The position numbers and the translations under genes were made by a program. The notes under the pieces are model-generated. The model saw nothing but the letters and a program-made list of their open reading frames with translations. It ran no database searches and was not told the origin of the DNA. Shown here piece after piece: positions 1-28,411 of a stretch of 64,000 nt of DNA. The first letter of the stretch is position 1, and each line of letters opens with the position of its first letter. This DNA is from Klebsormidium nitens (taxonomy: Eukaryota > Plantae > Klebsormidiophyceae). The stretch spans positions 1 to 64,000 of the forward strand of contig DF237253.1 in the NCBI GenBank assembly GCA_000708835.1. The letters run 5' to 3'.

Positions 1-2
1 GT

Positions 3-1696
3 AGGATCTGTCCTTACGGAGAGGAACATACGAGCAACAGTTTCAGCATCATCTGCAACGGGATCTGCATGGAATACCGCTGCCTGTCAACAGGATGCAA
101 AGAGAGACCAAGAGTTCTTCTCGGGCTGCACCATTGGCCTTCGCTTTTGATTTCCAAAGCACGTTTTGATCTGCGCCCTATCGAGGAAGCGGAGAGAATC
201 ATATCAAGCAGCAAAAGCAATGTCGACAAAGTGCAATATCAAAGCATGTGCCAACAACTCACACAGACTGCTATCGACACGATGAACCACTACTTCTGCG
301 TTCTAGACGGCAGCTCAAAAGTGCTCTTTATCGAGACCCTTTTCGTTGAAAGAGGCACTGCATGGGTACCAAATGACAGCATCCTTCGAACAAGAGCTGA
401 GTTCCTCGAACGGTCCGAATCATTCAATCTGGACAGCCTGAAGATTGGCAATCTTGGAAATCTGTGGTGCAAGTCATCAGCGAGAAGGACGCTCAACAAG
501 GTAGTCTTCGAAGCAAACTCTCGTCTGGTTTCGCCTAACAATTACAATCTGTTCTACGGCTTTCCCTTCGCTTACGAAGCGGATCAGCCTGTTGACATGA
601 AACAAATCGATCTTCTCTTGAAGCATATCAACGAGGTATTGGCAGACAATGATCCTGCTGTAGCGGAAGTTACCTTCTAAACTGGTTAGCTCACCTTGTT
701 CAGAGACCGTATAAGAAAATTGGTACTGCACTTGTGTTCAGGTCTGACCAGGGCGCAGGCAAATCGATCGTGACAGATTTTGTGGGGAAATATGTCATCG
801 GATCTCGATACTATCTGTACTGTAACGATATGGAGAAGGTGATAGGCAAATTCAACGGAATAGCTGCAAATCTCCTTTTGGTTTGCTTCGATGAAGTAAG
901 CAGTTGGGGTGGGGCCTACAAAAGTAATAACAGGTTGAAAAGCCTCATCACTCAAGATACAACAATCCTAGAGAAGAAGGGGATCGATCCCCTTAAGGTA
1001 CCCGATCTTGCTACCTACTGGTTTAACACTAACGAAGACTGGCCGATCGAAAAAGAGGCAACCGACCGGCGCTACGCATGCTTTGAGGCCTCCGACTCTA
1101 GATTCGGAGATCAACCCTACTTTGATTGGCTTTGTGAAAGCCTCACTAGCACTACAGCTGAACACTTCTACCGGTACTTGATGTCAAGAGAAGGCATCGA
1201 CACTTGGAACCCCAAGCAGATCCCAAAAAGCAAGTGGAGCTCTGCTCTCAGGGAGCACTCGATTCCATTCTGGGCAAAGATGATATGCGGGTTGCTGGAC
1301 AACGGCAACTTTTCATCAGATTCGAAGACGAAGGTGCTAAGCGCCACCATCTTCCGAACTTATAGGTCCTTCGTAGACAATCAAGGTGCAAAAGAAGATC
1401 CGCCGCAACAGAAAGACGTTTTGATTGGTCGGATCAAACGAACACTTGGACTGGATGGTTACAAAGATGTCAGTGGTCGCGGCTTGATCTTTCCAACGAG
1501 AAGTGAGCTGGAGAAACGGCTGCAAGAAATTCGTTTGAGAGTCGACGAAGTGCATTGGGACGGATCATGGGCTACTGAGCCAACTTTACTAGTCTCATCG
1601 ACTCGATATCTGACAACTTCGACTCTGTACTTATCACTTTCGCTCGTAAGTAATCATCGCTGTCCCCCAGTCGTGCAACAGAGTCCTTTCAGCTAA
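3..1696 (+). CDS. Viral/MGE-type zinc-finger + SF3 (D5/DUF5906-like) helicase; 5'-truncated by the window; one frameshift near 670
   Basis: The frame of ORF 69-680 is open back to nt 3 and reads RICPYGEEHTSNSFSII...YRCLSTGC (C-H-C-C zinc finger). At ~671 the other frame gives YLLNWLAHLVQRPYKKIGTALVFRSDQGAGKS (Walker A), continuing into ORF 734-1696 with Walker B (VCFDEV) and motif C (FNTNE). No introns are needed. Confidence 0.85.
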
Positions 1697-2710
1697 CTGC
1701 TTCCTCTCAACAATCGAACGATCGTTTTTGAAGTGTTCGCTAATGTAAAGGTGCCTCAAATGATTTTGGTTCAATCGCTTTCCGTTTGGAAATGTAGTTG
1801 AGGAGATGAATTTGGTCAAGTGGTTGTCGGACATAGCTTGTTTCGTATCTCCAAGCCGCGATAACAAAGAACCCCTGGGAACCAACTCAATCGATCGTCT
1901 GATGTAGTTGTTGAGACGTTGTGAAAGCTCAAACTCTTTTTTACCGTGCTTTTTTGATGTCTTATAAGTTTTAAGCACAAGTGAAAAATCACCACTTGTG
2001 CTTTCTCGGAGACAATTGCCTGTGTCCTTGTACGTCTTTTCGGCTTCACCGCAGAAGAAGGTTCCGTCTGCTCTACGAAGAGGAAGTCCGCTGAGATCTC
2101 TTCGCTTTGGTGGTTCATGGATGTTCATCGCAAGCAACAAGTGCTGGAAGACGCACTTAACCTCGTCTCTGCTGAGACTTGGACCGTTGTCTTTCGAGTT
2201 TGGCATTATATGCCTCCGAATGTGTCTGTTCAGCTTTTCCGCTCTGCTTTTGAGCTCGGTCATGCTTATCCAGTTGGCAACCTCCTTCTCGGTAGCCTTT
2301 TGCTCATCGGCCTTCTTCATCTGGACCACTTTCTTGACGGAGAAGCTCTCGAAGTATTTCTCATAGGTGCCTTCCCATCCCTTTTTGTGAGCAATGACCA
2401 TTAACGGGGTTACCTTATTTTTGAAAGTTCCGGGGTTGGGGTATTTTTGGTCGAGCTTTTCGATGATAATAGATGCATCCTTCATCCAATCTAACGTGGA
2501 AGGCAAAACGTTTTCGCCTGTGACTAAATGATAAATCACTCGCACACTGTTTAGGTACTGCAAAATCGTGATTTCAGCCCTCTTTCCGTCTTGAAACAGG
2601 TTGCGCAAAGCAGCCTCACCTGATGCAATTGTCCGCAGACTTTCGTTAGCCCCTCCTTTGTCAGATGTGGATTCTGTACTCGATTGAACGGATGCTTCCA
2701 AATCCATCAA
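1634..2710 (-). CDS. Tyrosine recombinase/integrase, of the type seen in Polinton-like viruses, virophages and NCLDV
   Basis: 358-aa intronless ORF with ordered catalytic-like motifs: PPKRRD (Arg), TYKTSKKHG (Lys), NHLRHLYIS (H/N-x-x-R) and LLHDWGTAMITY (His ... Tyr) at the C-terminus. Confidence 0.8.
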   Translation of the reverse strand: MMDLEASVQSSTESTSDKGGANESLRTIASGEAALRNLFQDGKRAEITILQYLNSVRVIYHLVTGENVLPSTLDWMKDASIIIEKLDQKYPNPGTFKNKVTPLMVIAHKKGWEGTYEKYFESFSVKKVVQMKKADEQKATEKEVANWISMTELKSRAEKLNRHIRRHIMPNSKDNGPSLSRDEVKCVFQHLLLAMNIHEPPKRRDLSGLPLRRADGTFFCGEAEKTYKDTGNCLRESTSGDFSLVLKTYKTSKKHGKKEFELSQRLNNYIRRSIELVPRGSLLSRLGDTKQAMSDNHLTKFISSTTFPNGKRLNQNHLRHLYISEHFKNDRSIVERKQLAERTLLHDWGTAMITYERK

Positions 2711-2744
2711 TTGGCAACCCTATATCATACATCATCTATAATAA

Positions 2745-3143
2745 TTCTGGAATCGAAACGGGCACCTCTTTAAGATGCGTCCCCTAGGAAATTCTGCTTC
2801 AGAACCCTCGGCTGGCCGGGATCAATGGCCCAGAATTCCAACCTTGGCTGCTGAAGTTTGGGCAGGACGATGGCTGCTTGGTCAACAAAGTTACCACTTT
2901 GTTTGGATTCTAGAATCCAAAAGCCTCAGGTAGGAACGCAGTTTGCTAAGATGCACCACCGTTTCAATTCTAGAATCAGATACGTGATATTTGATCTTCA
3001 GCTGTAATCCCAGAATTGAGAATATGAAGTGACAAAATATTTCAACACGCGGTCAATTCTAGCAAAAGCTCCCAACTTTTTGTGCATTTGGGGTCCCACA
3101 ATTGACTGTTAATTTCGCGAAATCGGGACTCCCCCTTCTAGAA
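2745..3143. promoter_or_regulatory. Cluster of TTCnnGAA dyads (heat-shock-element-like or protein-binding palindromes) in the divergent intergenic region
   Basis: TTCTGGAA at 2745-2752; TTCTAGAA at 2908-2915 (inside the perfect 20-bp palindrome TTTGGATTCTAGAATCCAAA, 2902-2921), 2968-2975 and 3136-3143. Confidence 0.4.
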
Positions 3144-3307
3144 TAGTGACTGGGATCGTTCATCTTTTCAGAGTGCTTCATGCAGCGGACACTTCGATGA
3201 GAGAGGGGCGATCTCTTATAATCGGCTGTCAACAATTTTGCCAGGTCCACGAGACGACCAAAATGCTTCAGGGGGGCAACCTCGGAGGTTGGGCAGCATG
3301 ATGCACT

Positions 3308-3931
3308 TTGCAGGGTTTTTATCTGATCTTACTTTCATACAGCTGGTCCATGGATATTGCATGCTTGAAACGAAGCTTTAAGGTGCTGCTTGCACTCGAC
3401 CATAATCAATCAGATGCTTCGAGCCTCCTTGAAGACACTCGTCTAGAAATTGACGCTGAACGAGGACGCGTTTCGCAAGCAGGCACACGCGCTGGCAGCC
3501 ACCTTTTCAGAGCACTCAAATGTAACGGTGCAGCTAAAGCACCATGCACTGTCTATGTACTGCTGAGGGAAACGACTAGAGGTTCAGCGAACAAGGAATT
3601 CGGATATCAAGTGAAGATCTCCCCGGTGAAGGAGTCCGACAGACCGCTCGGGCTTCCTTTCCAAGGTACTTTCTCATCCTCAGCAACCAAGATACCGGTC
3701 GAAGAGCTTGTTGAGATGCATGCGGAAGCATCGAAGGCGAAAAAGAAGCAAGAGAACACCAAGAAAAGCAAAGCCTCGACTCTGAGTAAGGTTGCAAAGA
3801 AGAATCCCAAGCAGAAGTCAAAGGCAAAACAATCAACCTCTACAGGCACTTCAAAGGCCACTAGAAAGGCTCGGGGAAGCAAGGCAATAACGTTCAAATG
3901 CGTTGCGGTCGACAGCGACTCTGAAGATTGA
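3308..3931 (+). CDS. Orphan protein with Lys/Ser-rich basic C-terminus (true start possibly the internal ATG of MDIACL)
   Basis: 207-aa intronless ORF, packed 15 nt from the next ORF. No recognisable family. Confidence 0.5.
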   Translation: MQGFYLILLSYSWSMDIACLKRSFKVLLALDHNQSDASSLLEDTRLEIDAERGRVSQAGTRAGSHLFRALKCNGAAKAPCTVYVLLRETTRGSANKEFGYQVKISPVKESDRPLGLPFQGTFSSSATKIPVEELVEMHAEASKAKKKQENTKKSKASTLSKVAKKNPKQKSKAKQSTSTGTSKATRKARGSKAITFKCVAVDSDSED

Positions 3932-3946
3932 GAGACGAGGCCTAAC

Positions 3947-4330
3947 ATGCTAGATTTTCTTTCCTCTCTGATACAAAAAAGAATGGAGAGAGGTTATACG
4001 TACTACGTGCCAAAGCAGCCACGAGGGTTATATAGCTTGCTTCCGTTCATTGACGAGATCGAAGCTCTCGGACCCTTCCGCTACGAAGGCAAAGTAGATA
4101 AAGGCCTCAGAAGTCCACTGGACATGGGTTTACTACGGCAAGGCGTTCTGCTTTTGCTTCACCAACTTTGTAACGAAGACCTCGTCGTGTCAGAGGATGA
4201 CGTCAAGGCCATAATCGAAGCGGGTGTTACGTACGGGGAATGTGCAGGGTATTCCGAGAAGGAGGGAGAGCTTCTATTGTCAATCGCAAAGGGGATACTC
4301 AAGGCCTGCAAGGCTGCCGAAGACAGCTAG
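3947..4330 (+). CDS. Orphan small protein (127 aa)
   Basis: ATG-initiated intronless ORF with globular-looking composition, followed by an A-run at ~4349-4361. Confidence 0.5.
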   Translation: MLDFLSSLIQKRMERGYTYYVPKQPRGLYSLLPFIDEIEALGPFRYEGKVDKGLRSPLDMGLLRQGVLLLLHQLCNEDLVVSEDDVKAIIEAGVTYGECAGYSEKEGELLLSIAKGILKACKAAEDS

Positions 4331-4431
4331 CTTTGCGTTGGTTTGTTGGAAAAAAAAAAAACAATGAACAATATTACAGAACTTTAACGAGATGGAGACC
4401 GGCGGCATAGAGTCTAACCATCACGCGTCTT

Positions 4432-4848
4432 GTGCCTTGTACTCTTTGCGGAAAGAAGCACCGTATCATTCAAAACGCGCTCTTTCCAAACGACTCGGAA
4501 ATTACTCTATCGTCAGAGGGCGTGCCTTGGTGCAAATTGCTCCAATTGAAGAGGCAAAATCGCTATAGACGTGACAAACAGTGTGTGCTCAAGAACAAGA
4601 AGGTCTGGTATCAGAAACATAAGCAAGCTATCTTGCTACAATCGGCTGCCGAGCGTCTAAGAAATGGAAGGACTCGGAGACCTCATCCAAAGACCATCTC
4701 GAAGTTAAAGGAAGCAGGCGTCGAGTTTGATTCTAACAATAGGATTCTTTGCGTAAAGACCGCCACCTCAAATCCAACGGCAGCCATTGACAAGTTCAAA
4801 GCTTCGAACCTCAGCGAAGCTCAAGCTTCTACAACTGAAATGGAATAA
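4432..4848 (+). CDS. Orphan basic protein with CxxC (CTLCGKKH) and KKVWYQKHKQ segment
   Basis: 138-aa ORF whose start codon is non-ATG in the ORF track. Basic, possibly nucleic-acid binding; family not identified. Confidence 0.4.
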   Translation: MPCTLCGKKHRIIQNALFPNDSEITLSSEGVPWCKLLQLKRQNRYRRDKQCVLKNKKVWYQKHKQAILLQSAAERLRNGRTRRPHPKTISKLKEAGVEFDSNNRILCVKTATSNPTAAIDKFKASNLSEAQASTTEME

Positions 4849-5084
4849 GCTCGTTAATGATCATTTTGCCGGAAGAAGTTGCCAAGAGCTCGGACAGTAA
4901 GGACACTGCCATCTCGGTTGTCTATCAATGCAAACCTTTGCATAGGATTTGAGCTCATAGACAGTATGGACAGCAAGGACATATCGTTTCAGACCGTGGG
5001 ACACATAATTCTTATTGTCGGCATGCACGTTTGCTTATTCATAACAAAGTCAAGCGTAGAGGACTCTTGTCCATCAATGCACAC

Positions 5085-8000
5085 CTAACTTGGTTCGTAA
5101 CTGCTTTCAATGCCTACAAACACTTGTGGCCTTTTATCTAAGTGGTCATGGGATTCGAGTTTTTTCTTTGCAAAGCCCTTCTTGTTCATCCTAGCAGCCA
5201 AGCTTTCGACGCTGATTGTAAGCTCTCCTGACGCTGCTCTATAATCTTTGAGAAACGCCGCTGCGTTCCCCCGAAGCTGTGGATTGATTCTACACTGCTC
5301 GTCGATGAACTGCTGCAGCTTGTCGTTCTGTGCAAGATACGTATCCAAGTTTGCCTGGACAGAGGGCGGGACAGCTCCGATCGACTCCCCTTGCGCATAG
5401 AACTTCACCGCCCCTCTCACCAACCACGAGAGAAACTGCTCGAGCGTCTCGTTTTCCTGCATTCTCGCCTTCAAGCCTTCGTCCACAGGCCGGTGCCGAG
5501 GGTTGGTCGGCTCAAATCTGGTCCGGCTCACGTAGAGGTTGAGGAAGTCGAAGATAAGCAACCGACGGAGCATAGCCGGTTCGGTGACGTCCCGGAGTTT
5601 CGGGGGGTGGTTGGTCAGCAAGATTGGGAGGTTCATGAGCGGAAAAGTCTCCGTCTGGCCGTATGGTGCGCGCGCAGAGACATTCCCTCCCCCCGTGGTT
5701 CCTTTAACCGAGCCCGTATCGACCTCTGCCTCCTCATTGTTCTCATCAAGGATGCTGAAGCGAAGCCCTTTCAAGGCATGCATGTGGGGAGTGGGAGCGC
5801 CTTTGGACGCCGGTCTCTGCCCCGCCGTTCTCACCACCACGTCCGTGGACATGACCCCGCAGTAGGGTCCTAAAGCTTTCTCCAACATCTCCTTGGTCAC
5901 GCCCTTCCCATTCCCTGCACAAAAAGCAAAAAAGATCAAGGTATCAGATTCCGATTCAAAAGCAACCAAACTAGAAATTAGAACCAATCGGTGTTCTTGT
6001 ACCGGGGCCCAGGCTCATGATTTTCTAAGAGATTAGGGCCGTGTTCAAGTTGTCCGACTGACTAGAATTGTGACCTTGAAAGCTCTCAAAAAGTTCTTCT
6101 TGTCCTTTACCAGATGCGGACTTACCGCCCAATCCGATCCAGAAGACCATGATCTCGCAAGCCTTAGACCCCGTCATGCCGTAGCCGAGCACAATCTGGA
6201 GGGTCCGGATGACCTCCTCCTCTCCGTTGAACACATCGTTGAAAAAGTCTTCGATCCGAGGGGAGGGAAGCTCGAGCCCCTGCACCAGAATTACAAGCGT
6301 AGCATCATGAGCTCGACGATGTGATGAAAGCTACACCGCAACTTAAAAGCGAACAATGAACAGCCCAATACTTTAGATTCAGAGTTGCGAGCAAATCTCA
6401 CTGTGTTCAATGGAAGGCTGCCTAAGAAACAACCTTTGACACGGAAAGCAACAAAGTGAGCAGTGAAAACTTACGCTATAAATCGTCTCTGCAAGCTTCG
6501 TGCACATGTATTGTGGGCGGTGGATGTCGAGCTGGCCAGTGCGCAAGTCGATCACTCCGTTGCTCACGTTGAGGATGTCAGGATTGCGGTCGAGCTCGTT
6601 AAGAAACGTGCTCGAGAACAACTCTCCCTTCACAACCTTCAACGTGTCCTCCGCGGTACGCCTGTTATTGTAGTCACGAAGCAGCTTGAGCTTCGCCTCG
6701 ACTATTTCTAGCTTGGCCTTGTCATCTTTGGGGATTTTCCTCTCTTCCTCTCGCAGCTCGCGCCTGACACGGTCGATGATCGTGCTCAGCTGGTGCATGA
6801 GGATGTACAGCACTTGAACGTCATGAGCCCGCTCGTACACCTTCCCGGTCCACATGTAGAAGCCCGCCGGAGTGTACACAGTCCTGAAAAAGAGGGCGTG
6901 AACGATAGCTTCAATTCAGTGGTGTTTTTACAGATTTTGAACGGTCATGTCCGAGATGTCCGACCTGAATCACGACTTTCTCAAAAGCTCCGGCCAACCA
7001 GCCCATGTCCGACATGTCCGACCTGAATCAGGACTTTCTCAAAAGCTTCCAAACGGTCGTGTCCGAGATGTCCGGCCCAAATCAAGACTTTTTCGAAAGC
7101 TCCCAAACGGCTGTGTCCAATCCAGACTATGCCGTGAATCTGTGCTTACCTCTTGCAGGCCGAATACATTTGCGAAAAGATCCGGCTCCCACCCCTGTCC
7201 CCCTGCAGCGCCCAATAGTCCACGAACTCCTTCGTGACACACCCGAGCACGGCTTCATCTCCATCAGCATCCACTGGTCGCACAGAGCCACGTGCTTCTT
7301 CCCCGACACCGTTCAAGTCGCCGATCTGCCTCCGTGGCATGATGGACTGGCACTCGGACGAATTGCAGTGGTAATAGAGACTGCTGCCCTTCACCAGGAT
7401 TGAAAAGTTGTTGGAACCCAGGTGGTGATGACCGTAGGGGCATGTCCGCTCTCCTTGAACCCGGAAGACGTACAGGTTGCCCTTTCGCTTGTCGAAGCGC
7501 GAAACACTGTCGCCGCATTCTGAAAGACAGCTTTTGATGCGCTGCAGCACGGCGATGTCGGGCTCTTCGCCAAAAACCCCCACGACGGGGGCAGGCAGAT
7601 CGAGGGAGGCCCGCCTTTGGCTTGTTGCTGCGGCGGTCCTGCACGAGTACCGATGTATCGATGGTCAAACAAGCACGTAATCAAGTACGGCAAAAGCACT
7701 TGGCCATCCAGGACCCTGAAAAAAGTCTCAGTTTCGATCGGACATCTTGAACATGACTAGAAAGCCTCGATCTTGGGACATAACTGCTTCTAGTGCGGTC
7801 GAAGCTATCAAAAATGCGATCTCAAATTTTCATGGCACAGCTTCAGTTGCGCTTCATCCCCTGCAAAAAGACGCGAACGTTGCGTCCTGACTGCAAGCAT
7901 GGATCAACCGGCCTGATCTGAAGTTGGACCAGACAGAGCACTTAATCACACCGGTGCTGCTCGAACTTCGGGCTGTGGATGATCAGGATCAGCCTAGGCT

Positions 8001-9166
8001 GCTTGGCATCAAATGCCCCAGACGTACCCGGTTCTTGAACGGCCCCCATTGGCGGTGCCCCCCGCGCCCGGTTGGTCCTCATTCAGGATGGCAATCAGCC
8101 AATCCGGACTTGCCATGAGATTAGAGCGGTCGGGGAGGATCTCGTGATCCCACTCGTAGCGCCGGAGCTCGCCGTCAAGGCCCCGGTAGCTGCTGGGTGC
8201 CGTGTACAGCATCCCCCCTCTGCCGCGAATGTCGATGCCCACCTTTTCTCCTTTGTACCGAATCCGGGTCCGGTTGCTGCCGTTCCGCAGACGGGCCTCC
8301 TCGGACTTGGACAGGGAGAAGAGGACGTGCATGCCCTTGTTCCCCGTCGTCAGGCGGGGCGTGTCCTCCGGGAAGTTGTCGTGCTCCTCGAGCATCTGCT
8401 GTAGCGCCTCAAAGCCCCCATCTTTCACGTCGACGTCTACTGCGAATAGGTCGGATTCCTCCGTGATGATGGCGATGGAGTTCCGCCCGGGCATCGCAAA
8501 CTCCTCGCTCAGGCAATTGTCGTGGTTGGCCTGGCTCCAGAACCCCAAACCCTTTGCGAACCTCCTGACTTCGCCAGTTTTATTGCGCCCCTCCTCAAGG
8601 TCGAAGGTGATGGTCACGACTCCCAACGAGTGAAATTGATGTGCGGCGGCGAGGATGGGGTCCAACCAGGGCGCGGTATCCTGCGAGGGAAAAAAGGCCC
8701 ACGAGACGATATCAGCATGTTGCAGAAGGAGAATGTTAGGACACTTGCTGATCTTGTGGAAAGCTTGCGGCTGACAGCGCCCGTTTAAGTGGGGCCCTTT
8801 CGTTAGACCATCCCGAGTAGCATCATAAAACTCTCTTGTCCAAGCTGTCCAACCTTTTTTGATATTTTCTTGGGACACGGATTGGCTGCGGTGCTGACGT
8901 CATCAGATTGGCTCTCAAAAGCCCGCGCAAAAGCTTGGACATCTCGGACATGATGGCCGTTCAGGACCTTTGAAAAGGTCTGGATTCGGGTCGGACATCT
9001 CGGACATGGCCTGGTTCTGAGTTTGAAACGATCTGCTCAATCTACCCACTAGCAGTCAAAGAGTGCAAGTCTGCTTACAAAGGTTTCTTCCACTTACGGA
9101 AGGGTTTGAAGTTGAAGGAGGAGAATCCGTCTGAGCTCCATCATTCGATTGCGCGTGCGGGGCCAT
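5085..9166 (-). CDS. Spliced bifunctional primase-polymerase (Prim-Pol) + zinc finger + D5_N + SF3 helicase, ~867 aa, 6 exons
   Basis: Exons 9166-9098, 8680-8028, 7638-7150, 6883-6475, 6279-6126 and 5914-5085 total 2604 nt. All introns are GT..AG and all phases are compatible. Motifs: AVDVDVK, TTGNKGMH and GIDIRG (AEP); CPYGHHHLGSNNF..YHCNSSEC; NGVIDLRTG (D5_N); Walker A WIGLG|GNGKG restored across intron 5; ILDE (Walker B); LLTNHPP. Exon 1 is the least certain. Confidence 0.88.
6947..7112. repeat. ~53-58-bp tandem repeat (three copies) in intron 3 of the primase-helicase gene
   Basis: TGTCCGAGATGTCCGACC-GAATCA-GACTTTCTCAAAAGCT repeated three times; reverse complement of the unit at 9301-9390. 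Confidence 0.85.
8935..9012. repeat. Same 53-bp repeat family (~1.5 copies) in intron 1; one more copy at ~7710-7760 in intron 2
   Basis: GGACATCTCGGACATG occurs twice, flanked by TTGAAAAGGTCTGGATTCGGGTC. Confidence 0.8.
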
Positions 9167-9300
9167 GTGAGGCTGCATACAAGAAGGAATCGGCCTTCAA
9201 TTACAGGCTCGCATAAAGCGCCCCTCTAAAACTTGTGTTCATTCCAACTGAGACTCAGAGCATCAAGAGGTGAACCTTCTGTTCTGCTGTCGTTGGGAGC

Positions 9301-9392
9301 CTTTGAGAAAATCTTGATTTTGGTCGGACATCTCGGACATGGCCGTTTGGAGCCTTTGAGAAAGTCTTGATTTTGGTCGGACATCTCGGATA
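9301..9392. repeat. 53-bp tandem repeat (~1.7 copies) upstream of the primase-helicase start
   Basis: CTTTGAGAAA at 9301 and 9354 (period 53), with core GGTCGGACATCTCGGA. Confidence 0.85.
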
Positions 9393-10426
9393 CAAGACAG
9401 TCTTGAAAACTGTGTACAGCTCAAACGGCTCACCGCATCTGAAAGGAGAGGTAGCGCGGGCACCAGCGCTTCCGAGGACGAGATTGCTGGACTTGAGTTG
9501 TCTTTCAGACCTTCAGAAAGGAAGTCGACTTTCAGGCGCTTGGCGTGGCGTCGAAAGGGGCCGGGTGATAGCGACATTTCGCCGACCTCTTGGCTAAGAT
9601 GCATCATGCTGTCAGCCTCGTCTTGGGGGAAGTGACGCGGCGAGTCTTCCTGGTCGCTGCCGACTGAGGATCTTTCGTCGCCCTCTCGTTCACTGGATCT
9701 GGGTGCCGGTCCAGACAACATCTGATCACAAACGTGAAGGATAGCAGCTTTCAGAAGGTGCAATTATGTTTCCACAACAAGCAGCTTGGGGGTTCTCACG
9801 AGAAGTCAAAGTCTGCACCCTCCATTGAGCGCAGCGCTCACAGCGTTTCTAGCTGTCCTTAACAAGAAATCCTTGATAACGAGCCAGTTTGCTCAAGGAT
9901 CTGCCGCGCATCTGCTGAGCATAAGGAATAGATGCCTGTCCACTGGTCCTGGTCTGGTTGGAGCTGAGTCTAAGTATTCTCCCAACGATCAGCCATCTGG
10001 ATCTGCACCCTCCAAGAAGCGCCCCGCTCACCTTGTATGAGCTTTCTGGCCCTCTGAGCAACTTCTGCGTTCTAAAACCCTTGACGGAGAACAGGCCACG
10101 AACAGGCGATCAACTGAAGCATCTGCCGGCGCTGCGCAGGCTGGAGAGATATGCGCTGTGCCAGCAGCTTGATGGAGAGGCAGTCAGCTCAAGATGATCT
10201 GCCGGTGCTGCGCAGCTTTGGAGAGGTGCGCTGTGCCCTGCTGGCACGGCACTTCAATCAGCAGCTGTCCGAAATGAGACCATGGTGTAGAGCAGCTGGT
10301 GTTGGCAGAGGAAAAAGAGGGAAGAGGATGCTTGCAAGAAGGTTGAGGAGAAGCTAAGAAAGAAAGCGTTGGGGAACTGTTTGTATATATGGAGGGGGGC
10401 AAGTCCCCTTTTTATAGATTGCCTGA

Positions 10427-10470
10427 GCATATTGCCTGGCATATTGCATATTGCATATTGCATATTGCCT
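10427..10470. repeat. (ATATTGC)n short tandem repeat
   Basis: Four perfect copies at 10441-10468 plus a flanking partial copy. Confidence 0.85.
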
Positions 10471-10704
10471 GGCCGAAAATTTGCGATTCGAGGCGGACAA
10501 GCTGGACATCAACAGTATCAGGCTCAGCTCAGACAGCAGCTGAGACTGTGGTGGTTGTTGCAGTTACACGATTCCGACAGTGCCGTTTCCGGAGCCGAGC
10601 TCTCTCTCTAAAGAGAAACCTGACTCAGACGTTTGAGCGAGCTCCAGCTGGCAGCTTAGGCGGTTGAGCGAATCCAAATTGCCGGTGATCCGCTCTCTCT
10701 GAAT

Positions 10705-11570
10705 GGAAAAATCTGACTCAAACACTTGAGCGAGCTCCACCTGGAAGCTCGCTGAGGCGGTTGAGCGATTCCGAAGTGCCTCAGCTCAGCCGGTTGACCG
10801 TTTCCGAAGTGCCTCAGCTCAGGCGGTTGAGCGATTCCGAAGGGGCCGAGCCTCCTCTGAACGTCTCAGGCTTAGGGTTAGGGTTCGCAATGAAGCAATC
10901 CAGAGTCAGTCCGGTGGCATGATACGTACGGTTGGAATGTCAGAAAGCCAATCGCGGTCAAAACCACGTCAAAAAACCCAAGTTATTTTCCACAAAACCG
11001 TTTCATCGGAAACGCGGTTTACCGATTGAACTTTTTCAACCACCGCCACTGGTCGTTCCGGCCGATCGCGGGGCCATGCGGGAGGGGGGACACGTGCCCT
11101 GCGGTGATGAGCGTTTTTGCCACCGATCAGTTGGCATAAAAAGGCAACTGAGATCAAAATCTGACTAAAGACACTTGAGCGAGCTCCAGCTCAGCTCAGG
11201 CAGTTGAGCGATTCCGAAGTGACGGTTCCGGGGCCGAGCCCCTCTCTGAAACCTCTTAGGCGTAGGGTTAGGGTTCGCAATGGAGCAGTCAGGTCGGTGG
11301 CATGGTACGTACAGTTGGAATGTCAGAAAGCCGATCGCGTTCAAAACCGCGTCAAGAAGCCGACTAACCAAGTGATTGTTTGTCTGTTGGTGCCCCCCAA
11401 GAAACCCAGGATCTTTCCACAAAACCGTTTCACCGGAAAAGCGGTTTACCGAGCGAACTTTCTCGACCACCCCGCTGGTCATTCCGGCCGATCGCGGGGC
11501 TGTGCGTGAGGGGGGACACGTGGCGCCCTGAGATTGGCGCTTTTTATGCCAACGCTCGGTTGGGGACATG
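10705..11570. repeat. ~440-bp imperfect tandem duplication, each copy containing TAGGGTTAGGG and GAGCGATTCCGAAGTG sub-repeats
   Basis: ~10705-11145 aligns by eye with ~11155-11570 (shared AATCTGACT, CACTTGAGCGAGCTCCA, GTTGGAATGTCAGAAAGCC, TTCCACAAAACCGTTTCA, TTCCGGCCGATCGCGGGG). Confidence 0.8.
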
Positions 11571-11859
11571 CGCTTGGTCCCTTTGATGGCGCGCGGCATG
11601 GCGGCCAACGATTCGCACAACCATCCTATACTCTTGAAGCTTTGAAACCAACGCAGATTTTCAACGCTGAGATGTTCTTGCCAATGAACTATATGTGAAA
11701 AGCGCATGCATGATATAGCAGCTGACAATTTGCCAGTCCATATTGACGTCTTTATTTCCATCTCTTGCAACATTGCACGCGTTGTCAACCTGCACCGACA
11801 AGCTATAATTTCAAGCCAGTACGTGCAGACTCATGGTTTCACTCCCACTGTTAGATCAG

Positions 11860-12030
11860 TGCGCGAGAAATTGTCGGGCATGGGGCCAACAGTCTGCACC
11901 ACCATATGCTGCACAAAAACGCTCTTAAGCAATGCAAATTGACGGCGCTTTGTCCCATCTCTTACGTTATCATGCGGAAAGTGTGCGGCATGGGACCGTC
12001 AATTTGCACCGTCAATATGCACCCTGATGC
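11860..12030. repeat. Degenerate ~110-bp satellite, left part
   Basis: GAAA(G)TGT..GGCATGGG(A/G)CC recurs at ~11865 and ~11977, with CCGTCAATTTGCAC and TCCCATCTCTTAC sub-motifs. Confidence 0.6.
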
Positions 12031-12099
12031 TATAGTTTTTTTTAAAATGTTTTAACGTCGGTTCGGAGCCGTGGTCGGCTTAGTCGACGATCAATCTAC

Positions 12100-15000
12100 T
12101 CAAGCCTGCACTAAGCTTGATCTTATTGCAAAGCTTAAGTGCAGAAACTTCCCTACCATATACTTATCTTGCAAATTGAGGAACGAACTTAACTTCTGTT
12201 CTCCTCTATCCTCAAAGATGGAACGGAAAGAACTCCTAACACTATTGTATGCTGGGCACTCAAATACAAAATGACTTTCGTCCTCTACCGCGCCTGTTGC
12301 ACATATCGTACAAAACCTTTCGGTCCGCGGCTTTCTTTGCCAAGCTCCCGTTTCAATAGCCAACTTATGAGCCCCTACCCTAAAGCTGGCAAGCGTGGAT
12401 AGAAACGGAGCATGCTCAATCTGGTCAAGTAGGTCTCAAATGTGTATCCCTGCTTCACATCACTAAAGTACGTGCAATACTTACGCCCATGCTCTTCCCT
12501 CAGATCTTGCATGTACGCAAACTCGGACAATGTTCTAAGCGACCTGACGTCAAACTTCCCAGCAAAGCTTCCATCACAAACTAGTTCTTGGGCCTTTTCG
12601 ACAATATCAGCAAACCACCCTTTCTCACCAGCGGCCCACATGACCTTGGACTCCTCCAGCGCTAGCCGCGCCAGTCTGTCTTCCGAAAGGCCTAAAGTCC
12701 GGTTGACGAACTTGAAGATTTGCTCCCCGGGCCCACCTGCGAACGACCACAGGGAAACGGCCGAATTCGCCGAGAACAGCCTTCGAAAGAGTCGTCCTCT
12801 TGACCCTCAGGAGCCCCCGTAAGAACGCCCTATGGACTTTCTCTGCAGAATCACCGTCCCCATTCCACCCCCACTCTGGGCCGTACCCCGGACCCCACAC
12901 TTCCGCCCCGTACTCAAGGATCGGTTCCACTAATACGTCGAACAACCGAACTCGAGTGCTCAGCTTTCTCACCCCCAGCTCCGTACACCTCCGTTCTAGA
13001 GCAAAGGCTGCCTTTCGCCCGGCCGCCGCCAAAGCCTGAGCCCCCTCCCGAAAGCTCCCGTTACAATGGAATTGCACTCCCAGATACCGATAACTCGGCA
13101 CTATTGCGACGCGCTCCCCCGCATACCGAAACTCGTTCTTCTCTTTCTGAACAGCGACTTGACCTCCGAAAACTACAACCTCCGTCTTTTGAAGATTAAC
13201 CAGAAGCCCACTCCTTTCGCTGAAACCCTGCAATAGGTCCAGCTTCCTTTGCAGACCCGCAGCGCTCGTTGACAGCAGAACGACATCGTCTGCAAAGGCA
13301 AGGAACGGGACTTCGACGCCCTGCAGTGTTGGACTGTCCGCTGCCCTGCACATCACGGCCTCTAACCCGTCTATATACAATCCAAACAGCAAAGGACTTA
13401 GCGGACACCCCTGTTTCACCCTGCGGTTGCTCTCGAAAGTTTCAGCGGAAGTCCACCTGTCTCCCCTCATGCGGCAGCGCACGTTAGCATACATGCTCTG
13501 CACGCTCCGAAGCATCCGCCCCTTGACCCCAAGCTCCTCTAGGCGCTTCCACAACTTTTCACGTGGAACCATATCGAACGCTTTCTTGAAGTCGACAAAG
13601 CAGGCGAAAAGGTGCCGGCTCCTACCTCGCGCCCAACGCTCGATCAGAACCCGAAGCGCCAGCATGTGGTCCGCCCCCCGGAACCCCTTTCGGAACCCCG
13701 CTTGTCCCCGCGCTCGGACCAGCCCCTTTTCCGCCCACTCGCTTAGCCTCCTGTTTAACACACTGGCGTACAACTTGCCTAAGACAGGCCCCACCGTCAC
13801 CGTCCTATAGTTTCCGTAGTCTGTTGGGTCACCCTTTTTGAAGATTGCCACAAGAGCCCCCTCATTCCAACTTTCCGGAAACACCCCCTCTTCCAACACC
13901 CGGTTGAAGACTCCCGTCAGTGCCTTGAGAAGGTGTTCCTCCCCCGCTTTCAAGAGCTCAGCCGTAAAGCCCCCCAAGTCTGGACTCTTCCCGTTCTTCA
14001 GAGCTCTTAGCGCCACTTTCACTTCGCCCTCCGTGATTGCTGCTTCCAAGCTGTCTGGCCTTACAAGACTTTGCCGCTCTCGCTCCTGCTCCGGCTCCGG
14101 CTGAACTTTGGACCCAGAAAGGAACGATCCCGACTGCTCATACAGAGACTTGCAGTGTTTTAGCAGCCCAGCTTCATGCTCTGGCCCTAAACCTTTTGCT
14201 TTTCTCCTGAACCGCTTCCAAAAGGTTGCGGGACTGTTCTGCATCTGATCCTCCAGCTTGGCCGCTCTGTATTTGTCGAATGTCCGTTTCTTTCGCCTAA
14301 CCAGTCTCCTGTACTCTTTTTTAAGCTGGCTACTTAAGTGAGACGGGCCATCCGTCTTCAGGGCTGCTAAAAATTGCTTGCGAGCATCCTTACAGTTTCC
14401 ATCAAACCAAAAAGTGCTACGGTTTACAAACTGCTTTCTTGATGCTGCCGAAGGGAAAGCGCACTGACCAGCACTTCTAACGGCTTCTTCTAGAACATCA
14501 GCTGCTTCTCCAGACCCCATCGCCTTCAAGTTCTTGGTCAGGAATTGCAACTCGACTGACTGAGCTAGCATTGCATTGAAGACAGGGATCCCCTCAGACC
14601 TTACCCTTGGCACTGGAATCTGATCAGCCTTTGGGACCTCTATAGCAGGCATCTTCTCGGGGAAGTGCTGCGCACCCACCCTCAAGGATAGCGTCACCAC
14701 CCTATGATCTGAGTCAGGCACTTCATCTGAGACAACTAAAGTGTCCGCTCGCTTGGCTAAAGAAGCGGAAGTAACAAAGACGTCAACCAAGCTGCTTCCG
14801 CCCCCAGCCGGGAAGCATGTGCCCCTGCCTGCTTCGTCGCCTCTAACTCTGCCATTGAGAATCCTGCAGTCCGCTGACTTGCAAAACTCAAGTAGCAACT
14901 TCCCTGCACCGTTGACCACTTTGTCGCTAGACGCTCTTGGCGCGATGAACTCTGGCTCCCCCCAGCTCTCTGCGTCAGGAACGTCAGCAAGGAACTCAAT

Positions 15001-15531
15001 GTCCCTTGTGTCCAGCCAGTCACACAAGGAGCTAGTACGCGCGTTCAAATCTCCAGCTAGCACAACTTCCCCAACAGACATTGCTGCCGCTGCTTCCTGG
15101 GTCAATTGCTCAAAAATTGCTTCTAAGGAGGTTCCAGCTTGTTTATACCAAGTTGAGGTCTCTGGAGGCAGATAAGCCAGACACAAGAAAAGATCCTGCC
15201 CTGCTGAGCCTAGGCTTGGGAATCTAAGCCACATGTGGCTTTCTGAGCCTGCCCTCCATTGTGACACGCCTAAGCTTGCTAATTCCTTTGACATCCAGAT
15301 GGCTAATCCACCCGCACCGCGCCAAGCAGCTTGATGTTTAAAACTACGCGGCTGCTCAAAAGAAAAGAATCCTTCCAAACATTCTAGCGTCTCTTCGGGC
15401 TTGGCCCAAGTTTCCGTGAGCAGAACAATGTCCACTCCAGAACCAACAAAATCTGTTATTGATTCCCACTTTTCATGCCTCCATCCCTGACAATTCCATA
15501 ATGCAAAGGTCAAATTAACCCTTCTGTTCAC
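12100..15531 (-). CDS. LINE ORF2: APE endonuclease + reverse transcriptase + C-terminal CCHC; two 1-nt frameshifts (~12728 and ~12403)
   Basis: APE motifs WNCQG, LTETW, GDLNAR and SDH; RT motifs GQAGFR, FVDFKKAFD, QGCPLSP, FADD and YLG; CTICATGAVEDESHFVFEC in the last frame. Shifting frame restores WAREQIFKFVNR and LASFRVGAHKLAIETG. Confidence 0.92.
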
Positions 15532-15561: not shown

Positions 15562-16338
15562 CTAGCATTTTGTTGAGGTGGGAGCAACCTGACTGGCTGC
15601 CACCACCAAAGAGCCATTGATGAACAACCTTCCTCCAACAATGCGCGCATGCTTCTTTTCTGCTCTAGCCTCCTTCATAAGCTTGACTTGATGGAAGTGC
15701 TCTGCCAGCTGCCTTGGCGTCCGATCCTCATCCACTCCCACAGCCAGTCCCTTCAGGGTGGGTTTTGCCACCAAGATCTGCCGCCGACCTTGCTCTGAAA
15801 CAGTTTTCACCAGGATCGCTCGTGGGCGCTCACCCTGCTTTTTCTGCCCGATCCTAGTGGCTGACTCAACCAGATTCGCAGCATTCTTTACCCTCATGCG
15901 ATCACTGAACAAAGCCACAATCTTGTCTTTGATGCTAGAAGGGTTTTCGTCAGCAGACTCTTCCAACCCTGTTACACGAATGGAGCAAGCCCTCGCCTTC
16001 CTCTCCACGGTCTCCCAGACCTGTTCATCCACCACTTTGGACACGGTTCGCTTGACTTCCTCGGCTACATTGGCAGCCTTCAGTGCAGTCTCCTCACTTG
16101 GAAACACCTTTTTCTTCACCATGCTTCCGAAGTCCTCCACTGACTTGCCTAGAGAAGCGGCATCTTTTCGCAACCTCCCTATCGCCTCATTGGCTTCATT
16201 CAATTGCAGTTTCAGCGCCGCAATCTCATCTTGCTGCGAGTCAAGCCGTTTTTCAAACCCCAAGCGCATCTCCACCAAGGCTGTCTCAAGGCTTTCTAAG
16301 GTGGTCACTTTCCCGGCAGCCATGGCTGCATAGGACAT
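15562..16338 (-). CDS. LINE ORF1 (coiled coil + RRM-like nucleic-acid-binding protein)
   Basis: 258-aa ATG ORF: coiled-coil N-half, then SIRVTGLEE...RIG...RPRAILVK...VDEDRT, typical of L1-type ORF1. Confidence 0.85.
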   Translation of the reverse strand: MSYAAMAAGKVTTLESLETALVEMRLGFEKRLDSQQDEIAALKLQLNEANEAIGRLRKDAASLGKSVEDFGSMVKKKVFPSEETALKAANVAEEVKRTVSKVVDEQVWETVERKARACSIRVTGLEESADENPSSIKDKIVALFSDRMRVKNAANLVESATRIGQKKQGERPRAILVKTVSEQGRRQILVAKPTLKGLAVGVDEDRTPRQLAEHFHQVKLMKEARAEKKHARIVGGRLFINGSLVVAASQVAPTSTKC

Positions 16339-16469
16339 CCTGTCAGCCTTCTGGATGCGCCCCTACCGGCATGAGTGTGCCACAAGTGAAATATATGAAG
16401 GAGCTTTCAAGCAATGAAGATTGACGACTTCACACAATCCTTACAACATCGCTCGAAAAAATCTGACGT

Positions 16470-20885: not shown

Positions 20886-22456
20886 TGTACTTACAGAGCA
20901 ACTCGCCTCAAAACAATCGGACGCCCGCAGCTAGCAGGATCCCCCAGCAACTTCTGCTTTCCACATTACTCGCACCTCAATGGCTCAGTGGTAAAGCATT
21001 TATCTCCTGAATTTACGAGGTCTACGGACCTTAACCTTGATGACAGTTGGTTGCGAGGAGCCAAGCAGGCTTTCGGACGGACGGATCCTTAGGCTCATTC
21101 GAGTCGGACAACTCTCTGGATGTTCTGATGGTACTAGGGTTCAGCACCTGGTCCTTTTACAAATTTTAACGAAGGGGTTGGAATGTAGACTCGGCGCTAA
21201 CCCGGAAATCTTTAACCCTGCCCACTCTAGCAATTTGGCCCTCCCAGGTAGCTAATCTAGCGGGGGGTACACGTGGCGCGCTGCGATTGGCGCTTTTTAT
21301 GCCAACGATCAGTTGGTTAATCGGTTCGGTACAATCGGCACTGTACGACGCCGCGGCGCGGGCCTGGCGATTGAGGCGCTTCGACCTAGCTCGAATGGCG
21401 GGCGTTCGACGATAAAATGTACAGGAAAAAGGAGAAAAGCTCCCATCAAACGTATTACATTTGTATGAGACTGGCGCGCGGAGGGCGCGGTTGCTGGATT
21501 TCGCATCGAACCTTCGCGACTTTGACGGCGACCATTGTCGGTTCGCGTAGCAGGATGCGTCGCCTCAGAAAGCTGAGGTCCGACTTGTGTCGGGCGACCG
21601 AACTGAAGTTAATCTTACATGCGCGTTGAATGTCACACGGAAGCTCCTGTCGAGCCGCTAATGTGGCCTGGCGCCCGACGATCGACGGACGCAAGCTCGC
21701 TTGCCAGGACCTCGGACAGTTAAAACGATAGCCTGCTTATTTGGTCGCTGCTTCCGAGCAAGGGTGATTCGGCAGCTTCGCCGTCGAAGTCGTGCATGGA
21801 AGGGTACCGACATCGAAACTTCTAGACTACGAAACTGAGACCTGTGTGTACAGGCCCCTCTGCCCGGTCGTCTCTGTGCTTAATTCCAGCCGTTCGATAA
21901 ATCGGAAGAGGCAAGCCTTGGCCGTCGCCAACATGTACGGTACAATTTCATATACCGGTATGTGCGGCTGCTCTGCGGCTGGTACTACGGTGCGCGGACA
22001 TTCCGTCACTCTAGCTTCAGTGAATTTGAACGGACTCGGAGAAGATTGAAGGACGGAATGGATCGCCGCGAATCGCCCCCGTACGCCGAAGGGCGGCGTG
22101 CCAGCGCACGGGCCGTGCAACAAACGATCTCTAATTATAATTATAAATGGCTAGGATTGTGGGTTAGACTAACCCACAATCAGATTAAATTCTCCGTGCC
22201 ACAAACGAACCTTTATAAGGCTAAACGACCAGGCTAACCCTACCCGTCCGTGAATTGTGACAGTGACTCGGACATTGTCATGTCAGAGCTGTCAGTGTTG
22301 CCAGTCTGAGTGATTCATGTTGAGCAGATTTTCCTTGCACTGTTGCAGTTCAACTTCCAGAAGTGGCAGAAGACGGCGGAAGGACAAAAGAGGAGAAACG
22401 AGGCGAAACAAGTCGAATTGCTGTTGAATCCTGTGCCGCTGGCATCTTCCTCCATC

Positions 22457-26548: not shown

Positions 26549-27877
26549 CTAAATCTGGAGATCCTCAGGCCACTTTACTGCAACTATTAATGAAGGATAC
26601 AGTTTTCGAAGTCTCGCAACAAGTCTGAGAGCGACGCCTACCGACACAACTTCTTGCGGAGTGTCTGTAAGATCGATGTGAAAGCACTCAAGTTTTGGAC
26701 ACGCTCTTGTAAGCGCCAAAGAAAGCTTGGAAACCAGTGACACTTCGCTGAAGCCTATGTACAACTTCTTCAACTCTGCCAAAGGTTTCAAAAGAAGAGC
26801 TGCGTCCTGCTCTATGTTCAAGAACTCGGACATACCGGTAGGAATGTGCAGCTCTTCGAGGTACTTGAAAGAATGAATGAGCTCAGAGAGTCTTACTCCA
26901 CTTTCGTACACACCATCATGGATCGCCGCGACATGCTTTCCAATCGAAACAACTTTTGCATCACTACATAATTCTAACACGTGCAAAAGCTCCTGCATCG
27001 TAGTTGGCCCTTCCTTGATGTCTAATGTCGTGATTTGCCAAGCTGTCTTCCGTTTTATGTCCCAAGTATAGTCCAAAACCAATTTTGCCAGATTTGGGGC
27101 ACAGATGATCAGTCTTTCGACATATGCGACCGTCAAAACCTCTAACCGTGGTGCTTCTATGTCAAGGGAGCTTATCATGGCTGAATCGACTCGGTCGCCG
27201 TTTGTTCTGAAGACTAATCTTGTTAGGGTATCAGAGGAGATGATGGGACTCTCAAGTCCGGAAACTTCATCTAAAGACAAGGTTTCCAAGCGCGCGCAAA
27301 TCTTGAAGATGCTTAAGAGGAGACTATCATCCAGGTCAATGTAACCCAAAGTGAGCGTAGTGAGGGACGTTAGTAAGTGCCTGCTAAAAAAGGGTCCTTG
27401 TAAATCCATCCAGAACATCTCAAGCGACCTCAGCTTGGGACACATCAATGACAGTGCCTTGAAAAGATCCTTGAACCTCTCGTCAACTGAATTTCCCGAT
27501 TGGTGTTGGAATGGCTCCATCAGGACAAGCGACTCGAGTCTTGGTGTCGTAGCTAAGAGTCCTTGTACAAACACTGGCGACACGTTATCCGCATCAAGGT
27601 AGAAAACCTTTGCTGCCTTCCTTTCTTGTAGAAAACCCAGCACCTTGCTTAGATGGTAGTTATGGGTGCACATCAACCTGTCTGCCTCTGGGACCAGCTT
27701 GTCGAAACGGGAGCAGACTAACCTCAAATGGCAGAGCTTACGCACGGACGCGTAGGCATTTTCAAAAGGGGCATAGCGAACCACTGATGCCTGAATCAAC
27801 ACACGCAGCAGCAGGTCGTCGGACAGCCTGTCAAAAGGGTTCTGTGGCCCTTCTTCAAGGGACCGCTCCGCATCCAT
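26549..27877 (-). CDS. F-box/LRR (RNI-like) protein, apparently intronless
   Basis: F-box FDRLSDDLLLRVL...LRLVCSRF after the ATG at 27877; LRR-like LxxLxL repeats (LRSLEM, LTTLTL, LETLSL, LEELHI). Confidence 0.8.
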   Translation of the reverse strand: MDAERSLEEGPQNPFDRLSDDLLLRVLIQASVVRYAPFENAYASVRKLCHLRLVCSRFDKLVPEADRLMCTHNYHLSKVLGFLQERKAAKVFYLDADNVSPVFVQGLLATTPRLESLVLMEPFQHQSGNSVDERFKDLFKALSLMCPKLRSLEMFWMDLQGPFFSRHLLTSLTTLTLGYIDLDDSLLLSIFKICARLETLSLDEVSGLESPIISSDTLTRLVFRTNGDRVDSAMISSLDIEAPRLEVLTVAYVERLIICAPNLAKLVLDYTWDIKRKTAWQITTLDIKEGPTTMQELLHVLELCSDAKVVSIGKHVAAIHDGVYESGVRLSELIHSFKYLEELHIPTGMSEFLNIEQDAALLLKPLAELKKLYIGFSEVSLVSKLSLALTRACPKLECFHIDLTDTPQEVVSVGVALRLVARLRKLYPSLIVAVKWPEDLQI

Positions 27878-28411
27878 CACGGCGTCCCTGCCTGCCACCT
27901 GCCGCAGAAGGAAGAGAGGCCCACTGCCAAACTGAACTTTGAACGCCTTCAGCACACCTCGTTTAGCCTGTGAGTTTCATGAATGAATGTGGCCCCGCCT
28001 CACACATATATATGAAAGGTGTGATGGTCGTTTACGCCAGCGTGGCAAACTAACCCAGGGTTATCGGCCCGGTTCGCTGACATTCGGCGGGTGTCAACGG
28101 TTCTAAACCGCCACGCTGGCGTGATTGGGTCCTAACCAGTACCAGGATTCCTTGGTCATTCGAGTTGTCAATGACATTGCATAATACCGTAGCTCCTAGA
28201 GGGAGAAAGAGAGAGAGAGAGAGACGCACTTGACCCTTGCATGAGGCGTTGAGGGGAGCTTGAGTGGTGCCCATGTGAATCAGTCATTGGAATTAGTTGG
28301 CAAACATCTGGTCAGCACCTTGGAGGGTTCAAGCCGTTGCAATTGTGCCCCAGGTTGTGATATTTCAGCTGGAGGAACGGGCCACTGTCAGCACATATTC
28401 GCAAGGGCGCA

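Follow-up and report, generated by a model that had tools for sequence, protein, structure and literature searches.

The left part of the DNA analysed here (the window, which is the whole stretch of 64,000 nucleotides (nt) from contig DF237253.1 of Klebsormidium nitens assembly GCA_000708835.1) probably belongs, as its right arm, to an endogenous Polinton-like virus (PLV) of a Klebsormidium alga; the capsid genes are predicted to be found beyond the window's left edge. We favour a PLV right end because relatives of its tyrosine recombinase (YR) occur in capsid-encoding virophage and PLV-like contigs, and because K. nitens has a multi-copy family of PLV capsid genes. A sequence-only reading of this DNA had offered such an end as one of two options, the other being a capsid-less transposon, and it is the one preferred here. 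The genes listed by that reading are all present (table 1): a zinc finger-superfamily 3 (SF3) helicase on the plus strand that matches DUF5906 (E 5e-18), a YR on the minus strand with its catalytic residues and a fold closest to Cre, three orphan open reading frames (ORFs) on the plus strand, and, on the minus strand, a gene for a protein with PrimPol (E 1e-15) and D5_N (E 4e-16) domains, here called the D5 gene. The right limit had been put at 9400, which is wrong, since the D5 coding sequence (CDS) starts at 9721 and a further 5' exon lies at about 10032–10333 or beyond. The "viral-style packing" ascribed to these genes describes positions 1–4848 and does not describe the D5 gene, with its seven coding exons and six introns.

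The YR retains R203, K250, H316, R319, H346 and Y355 as catalytic residues. Its structure model (predicted local distance difference test score, pLDDT, 87.7) has Cre as its best PDB match (E 2.3e-5), and no Pfam family matches the protein at an E value of 0.1. Twelve homologues are 42–79% identical to it, and its profile finds 1912 representatives at an E value of 0.001, most of them about 300–330 amino acids (aa) long among the 150 matches listed. A quick tree of 48 rows, from which most of those 150 matches were left out, places the window protein within a clade of 10 of the 48 rows (support 100). YR clusters of 4–20 members, on short contigs, hint at within-genome expansion. The 3' end of the YR gene overlaps the left helicase ORF by 63 nt.

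The left helicase gene is cut by the window start and has a frame change near position 669 with a stop at 678–680, where sister contigs are 1–2 nt shorter. Joined across the frame break with an X, its translation shows 43% identity in 494 columns to P0037, a protein of 924 aa with Prim-Pol, zinc finger and DUF5906 parts, and identity to K. nitens GAQ92246.1 is also 43%; a primase of its own is probably fused to it upstream of the window. A scan of metagenome contigs with this helicase gave two marginal matches among 39 candidates. The two helicases did not arise by recent duplication of one gene, because their cores have zero BLAST similarity and are separate lineages on opposite sides of the tree (FastTree, 36 rows, P0211 excluded as truncated); their zinc fingers are 37% alike.

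The D5 protein has PrimPol, zinc finger and D5_N parts and the Walker A sequence GLGGNGKG, and its frame is intact across six GT-AG introns. Its closest named relatives are K. nitens proteins: the paralogue GAQ92546.1 has the same start methionine and is 88–98% identical across five exons, and GAQ79182.1 is 70–78% identical to the last four exons. On this similarity, the host is in Klebsormidium or very close to it. One paralogue of D5 is located on a scaffold of 365 kb. Contigs from two runs (X11 and X17) whose status as RNA is a tool's guess have joints at or near the predicted introns, as well as an extra joint 9721->10032. Those of X11 are mostly 94–99% alike to the window (depth 3–7), and the best covered, in X17, is about 83–86% alike (depth 596); judged from these close copies, the D5 family appears to be spliced. 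The transcript runs at least as far as 10333, and an RNA contig of a paralogue extends to 10809. Zero cover in both runs over positions 1–4774 is no evidence of silence there. Scanning viral contigs with D5 yielded a single match, at 25%, among 83 candidates. Because the gene carries spliceosomal introns, its product needs nuclear host transcription. G+C at third codon positions is 0.71 in the D5 gene, 0.49–0.55 in the left genes and 0.53–0.72 in five host ORFs and the ORF2 of a long interspersed nuclear element (LINE). That this second replicase is spliced is the most unusual point about the locus, and it was absent from the sequence-only reading. Exon 1 contains a basic stretch that, by eye, is a candidate nuclear signal.

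Contigs from several sequencing runs support the proposal that these genes form a mobile unit, present in several copies, in which the two helicases are linked. Of 316 contigs placed on the window from run X1, which is possibly the source of the window itself, 172 are less than 95% alike, and for ORF5 there are an exact version and two others, at about 91% and about 86%, all three with a depth of about 20–24. Diverged contigs of one sample, about 81–91% identical to the window, keep the ORF5-D5 junction: one of 1324 nt spans ORF4, ORF5 and positions 4917–5114 (the D5 3' untranslated part plus 30 nt of CDS), and a second, at depth 20.5, joins 4641 to 5104 and is likely, by its depth, the 1907-nt contig that starts at 3078. 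Other junctions bridged by diverged contigs are helicase-YR (run X18), YR-intergenic region and ORF4-ORF5, in addition to ORF5-D5 3' end. A 5541-nt contig of a second organism (D) is unbroken over 4386–5800 at about 88% identity (161 differences, 13 gaps) and extends 2.7 kb further left; run X6 has short pieces only. Since the ORF5-D5 junction is kept in diverged copies and in the second organism, the two helicases move as a pair within a family of several copies, and the chance nesting or helper/satellite pair raised earlier becomes less likely. Single-copy, unlinked genes, named earlier as the case against a mobile unit, are not what we find, because there are several linked, diverged copies. 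Record 23 of run X8, also from organism D, is a 9547-nt contig at depth 77 that matches only ORF5 (4696–4791) and may be a more diverged or higher-copy relative. Over positions 1–13000, C>T and G>A changes dominate in run X18 (1191 of 1452 changed places), a bisulfite-type library pattern.

Table 1. Features at the left end of the window
Feature	Positions	Strand	Basis and remarks
Zinc finger-SF3 (DUF5906/NrS-1-like) helicase, C-terminal part	3..1696	+	DUF5906 match; intron-less
Tyrosine recombinase, 358 aa, intact; Cre-like fold; virophage/PLV-type family	1634..2710	-	Residues, model, homologues
Divergent intergenic region, YR/ORF3	2711..3349	.	Five TTCnnGAA palindromes, at 2745, 2908, 2968, 3114, 3136
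ORF3, 193 aa, basic low-complexity C-terminus	3350..3931	+	Orphan; within diverged contigs
ORF4, 127 aa	3947..4330	+	Orphan; diverged contig covers 3969-4324
ORF5, 138 aa, basic	4432..4848	+	Orphan
PrimPol-zinc finger-D5_N-SF3 helicase gene, 965 aa	5085..9721	-	Pfam domains; single open frame across exons
D5 coding exons	9721-9434, 9172-9098, 8680-8028, 7638-7150, 6883-6475, 6279-6126, 5914-5085	-	GT-AG ends
Repeat of about 53 nt, eight copies	6940-7118, 7705-7751, 8935-9011, 9291-9393	both orientations	All in D5 introns
Upstream exon of D5 gene, probably non-coding	10032..10333	-	Joint 9721->10032; stops in three frames
Repeat-rich region, candidate right end	10560..11563	.	33- and 93-nt tandem units, TTAGGG motifs, depth fall

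Three IMG/VR contigs bear on the viral affinity of this gene set. Among 54 viral loci screened via the helicases, two have a YR match, in both cases beside a DUF5906 helicase: L038 is a virophage with a Sputnik-type major capsid protein (MCP), penton, YR and DUF5906 primase-helicase, and L010 is a PLV-like contig with an A32 ATPase, primase-helicase and YR. The third, L057, was found via a YR relative and encodes a virophage MCP, penton, A32 and YR (E 5.6e-14). Together these distant relatives mark YR plus DUF5906 helicase as a known virophage/PLV module. L038 and L057 share the YR family with the window, and in L038 the DUF5906 primase-helicase is likewise beside the YR; they differ in being AT-rich and intron-less and in having Sputnik-type capsids, of which none is seen here. 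Traits of PLVs that are present in the window are an integrase (the YR) and a replicase (two primase-helicase genes); compact, intron-free genes are seen in the left helicase and YR and not in the D5 gene.

Endogenous PLVs have already been described in K. nitens. According to Bellas 2023 (PMC10120064, Tables S4 and S5), seven K. nitens MCP loci form one cluster: four at 71–86% to a reference, the reference itself, one at 29% and one that is its own reference. Column position and text put these loci in the PgVV group (cluster MMPC_86/PC_0089); in Table S4 only one MCP cluster is non-zero for K. nitens, by its column PgVV and not virophage, and the table credits Roitman et al. for the K. nitens PLVs. 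The same paper describes PLV endogenous elements as typically having a primase-helicase and a YR. The window element thus resembles the PgVV-group PLVs in host genus, in copy number and divergence, and in its primase-helicase and YR. Its ORF3–5 are 127–193 aa, versus 406 aa for the K. nitens MCP (PMC10120064).

Several observations weigh against a PLV right arm. No capsid, penton or packaging ATPase gene is among the 13 ORFs scanned in 1–15531, and the window family resembles the K. nitens MCP loci only circumstantially, in copy number and divergence, with no physical link between the two. The Sputnik-type MCP, penton, protease and ATPase of virophages are likewise not seen in the window. YR relatives from capsid-encoding contigs are only remotely similar (17% identity, the value for L038), and in the quick tree the YRs of viral contigs lie outside the window clade, on long branches. 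Collection scans, which were exact-pattern searches of low sensitivity, found no locus for any close YR relative: none of 161 metagenome, 57 viral and 46 prokaryote candidate stretches was confirmed for the YR itself, nor any of 60, 5 and 3 in the searches with the sister clade, P0061 and P0210, respectively. PMC10120064 describes endogenous viruses of this type, the K. nitens PgVV group among them, as lacking introns, and here there is a seven-exon D5 gene. At about 5 kb there is a step in G+C content (from 0.46–0.48 to 0.55), in G+C at third codon positions (GC3) and in intron content. The candidate right end has no terminal-repeat partner within the window, where at least 10.3 kb of the element is visible, as against the 15–30 kb, often with terminal inverted repeats, of a PLV; no empty site turned up either. 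Transcription of the exact window copy is not demonstrated, because the RNA contigs are 94–99% or about 83–86% alike to it, and no excision or replication was observed.

Were the element active, its YR would cut it out in circular form and put it back without duplicating the target site; PLVs that encode a YR are reported to form circles and to cause no target duplication (PMC12220804). The arm with the intron-less helicase and the YR would be the ancestral module for replication and integration, activated when a giant virus co-infects, as happens with the Tetraselmis PLVs. Primase, polymerase and helicase would be provided from the nucleus by the spliced D5 gene, and its product would prime and unwind excised circles without a helper, so that D5-driven copying would add copies of the element in the manner of a transposon. 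The window copy, whose left helicase is broken, would have to rely on its own D5 gene or on the sister copies. We offer as a tentative possibility, and an unlikely one, that there are two replication modes of this kind, or no capsid at all, with the spliced, host-transcribed D5 gene copying excised circles in the nucleus; the ordinary PLV is likelier. The larger question, raised in PMC10120064, is whether virions and the help of giant viruses are the only means by which endogenous PLVs spread, or whether they are also copied like transposons inside the nucleus. It can be addressed in a cultured, sequenced alga, because a replicase with spliceosomal introns in a multi-copy element needs nuclear expression. 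If two modes, or the lack of a capsid, were borne out, an intermediate would have been caught between a helper-dependent virus and a self-replicating tyrosine-recombinase transposon, and the transition would sit in algal relatives of land plants. Should there be capsid genes upstream, with the D5 gene no more than cargo, the locus would simply add one more PLV to a host in which they are already known.

A capsid-less, PLV-derived DNA transposon of about 12–15 kb, excised by its YR, copied by its own primase-helicases and adapted to the nucleus, seems rather improbable to us. It would account for at least 10 kb without a structural gene, for a spliced, host-transcribed replicase and for linked copies in two organisms. 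The close YR clade was not found in the IMG/VR scans, and the YR clusters of 4–20 on short contigs, with the within-genome expansions that they suggest, also speak for it; against this stand the low sensitivity of those scans and the K. nitens PLV capsid family, which is of similar size and divergence. A capsid-free arm is also expected in a PLV, because PLVs keep their replication genes on a different arm from their structural genes.

The step at about 5 kb, with its sharp change in G+C content, GC3 and introns, would fit a composite, in which a YR/helicase element inserted once beside an older, domesticated D5 gene and segmental duplication or cargo capture followed; the D5 gene would therefore not serve the element. 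Summed contig depth, which is a hint only and not a copy number, is 72–188 on the left and 31–69 on the right, one D5 paralogue lies on the 365-kb scaffold, and a paralogue reaches depth 596 in a presumed-RNA run. The junction is nevertheless kept in copies about 15–19% diverged and in the second organism, the repeated sequence seems to end near 10.85 kb and not to run into host genes, and the D5 frame is intact in the window copy, so we consider the composite very unlikely. Least likely is a fragment of an endogenous insertion of a giant virus (nucleocytoplasmic large DNA virus, NCLDV): K. nitens carries several NCLDV insertions (PMC5294986) and some DUF5906 relatives lie in contigs of giant-virus metagenome-assembled genomes (L001/L002 region, L018), but no NCLDV hallmark gene such as PolB, VLTF3, MCP or A32 is among the 13 ORFs scanned in 1–15531, and the small module of YR and primase-helicase is like those of virophage/PLV contigs.

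A right arm of a PLV would have close parallels in known systems. Endogenous PLVs of the green alga Tetraselmis striata (TsV-S2x) have structural genes on one arm and a D5 helicase-primase next to a YR on the other, the replication arm, and are activated by a giant virus (10.1101/2025.10.09.676808); this reactivation has been shown for TsV-S2x, for which one replicase is described in a main text without the word intron. In the PLV end module of Barth et al. 2024 (PMC11296320), a repeat is followed by a primase-helicase and a YR, so that, as here, the primase-helicase is between the element end and the YR; the window differs in having a second, unrelated helicase on the YR's opposite side and no identified inverted terminal repeat. 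PLVs of K. nitens and replicase-YR end modules are therefore known already. Full-text literature searches, with most subscription papers and Roitman et al. outside reach, turned up no PLV-type element that has a pair of unrelated primase-helicases of which one is spliced. Viral genes of K. nitens are methylated (PMC12344493), and nothing specific to the element was found in the available parts of PMC11244446 and 10.1101/2025.04.19.649669.

Other DNA elements that are capsid-less or integrate, and that have a YR (Cryptons) or a replicase (transpovirons and Polintons), are less similar. Cryptons have, to our knowledge, a YR without a replicase, transpovirons have an SF1 helicase and no YR, and Polintons have a protein-primed DNA polymerase B (pPolB) and an RVE integrase. 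The YR found here is not a lone Crypton-type enzyme, being without a Pfam match and linked to helicases, and in the visible part the integrase is a YR and the replicases are primase-helicases, not those of a Polinton/Maverick.

Summed depth drops to 17 at 10851–11284, near the 11–16 of exact-match contigs, a hint that the right end is at about 10.9–11.5 kb in the repeat-rich stretch. Of this, 10813–11563 is a 72% tandem duplication with TTAGGG motifs, and 11510–11563, which contains CACGTG, recurs at 21263–21316 (91%). The 53-nt repeat has nine matches at two or fewer mismatches, eight of them inside D5 introns (0.42 expected), and is a candidate for origin iterons or for a small inserted repeat; 28 single matches in viral contigs were treated as chance. 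Inverted copies of it were considered as element ends and rejected, all being inside introns.

The region between the YR gene and ORF3 is the densest place in the window for TTCnnGAA palindromes; the motif was picked post hoc, and the five seen compare with a mean of 0.36 and a maximum of 3 in 2000 shuffles. They resemble two-unit heat-shock elements, and could alternatively be recombinase or helper-virus sites. Just 5' of the ORF3 ATG, a branch-point, a pyrimidine tract and a CAG at 3308–3349 together resemble, by eye, a 3' splice site, which would mean an intron in a 5' untranslated region in the "viral" arm too. ORF3 has no family and no Atlas match, and its structure model (pLDDT 46) is too poor for searching; no family was found for ORF4. 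ORF5 is weakly like the C-terminal tail of a PLV-like YR (E 0.005, a single pair chosen by eye) and like viral hypothetical proteins (0.91, a recognition below threshold).

The window is eukaryotic, with GT-AG introns, a LINE at 12625–15531 and an F-box/leucine-rich repeat (LRR)-type gene further right; a prokaryotic contaminant was ruled out by the introns and the flanking LINE. Rfam has no match in 1–13000. The LINE is on the minus strand, with ORF1 at 15562–16362 and an ORF2 (12625–15531) that has endonuclease and reverse transcriptase; its C-terminal part apparently runs on in other frames to about 12100. The F-box/LRR-type gene is a single exon on the minus strand at 26549–27976 (LRR match E 1e-6).

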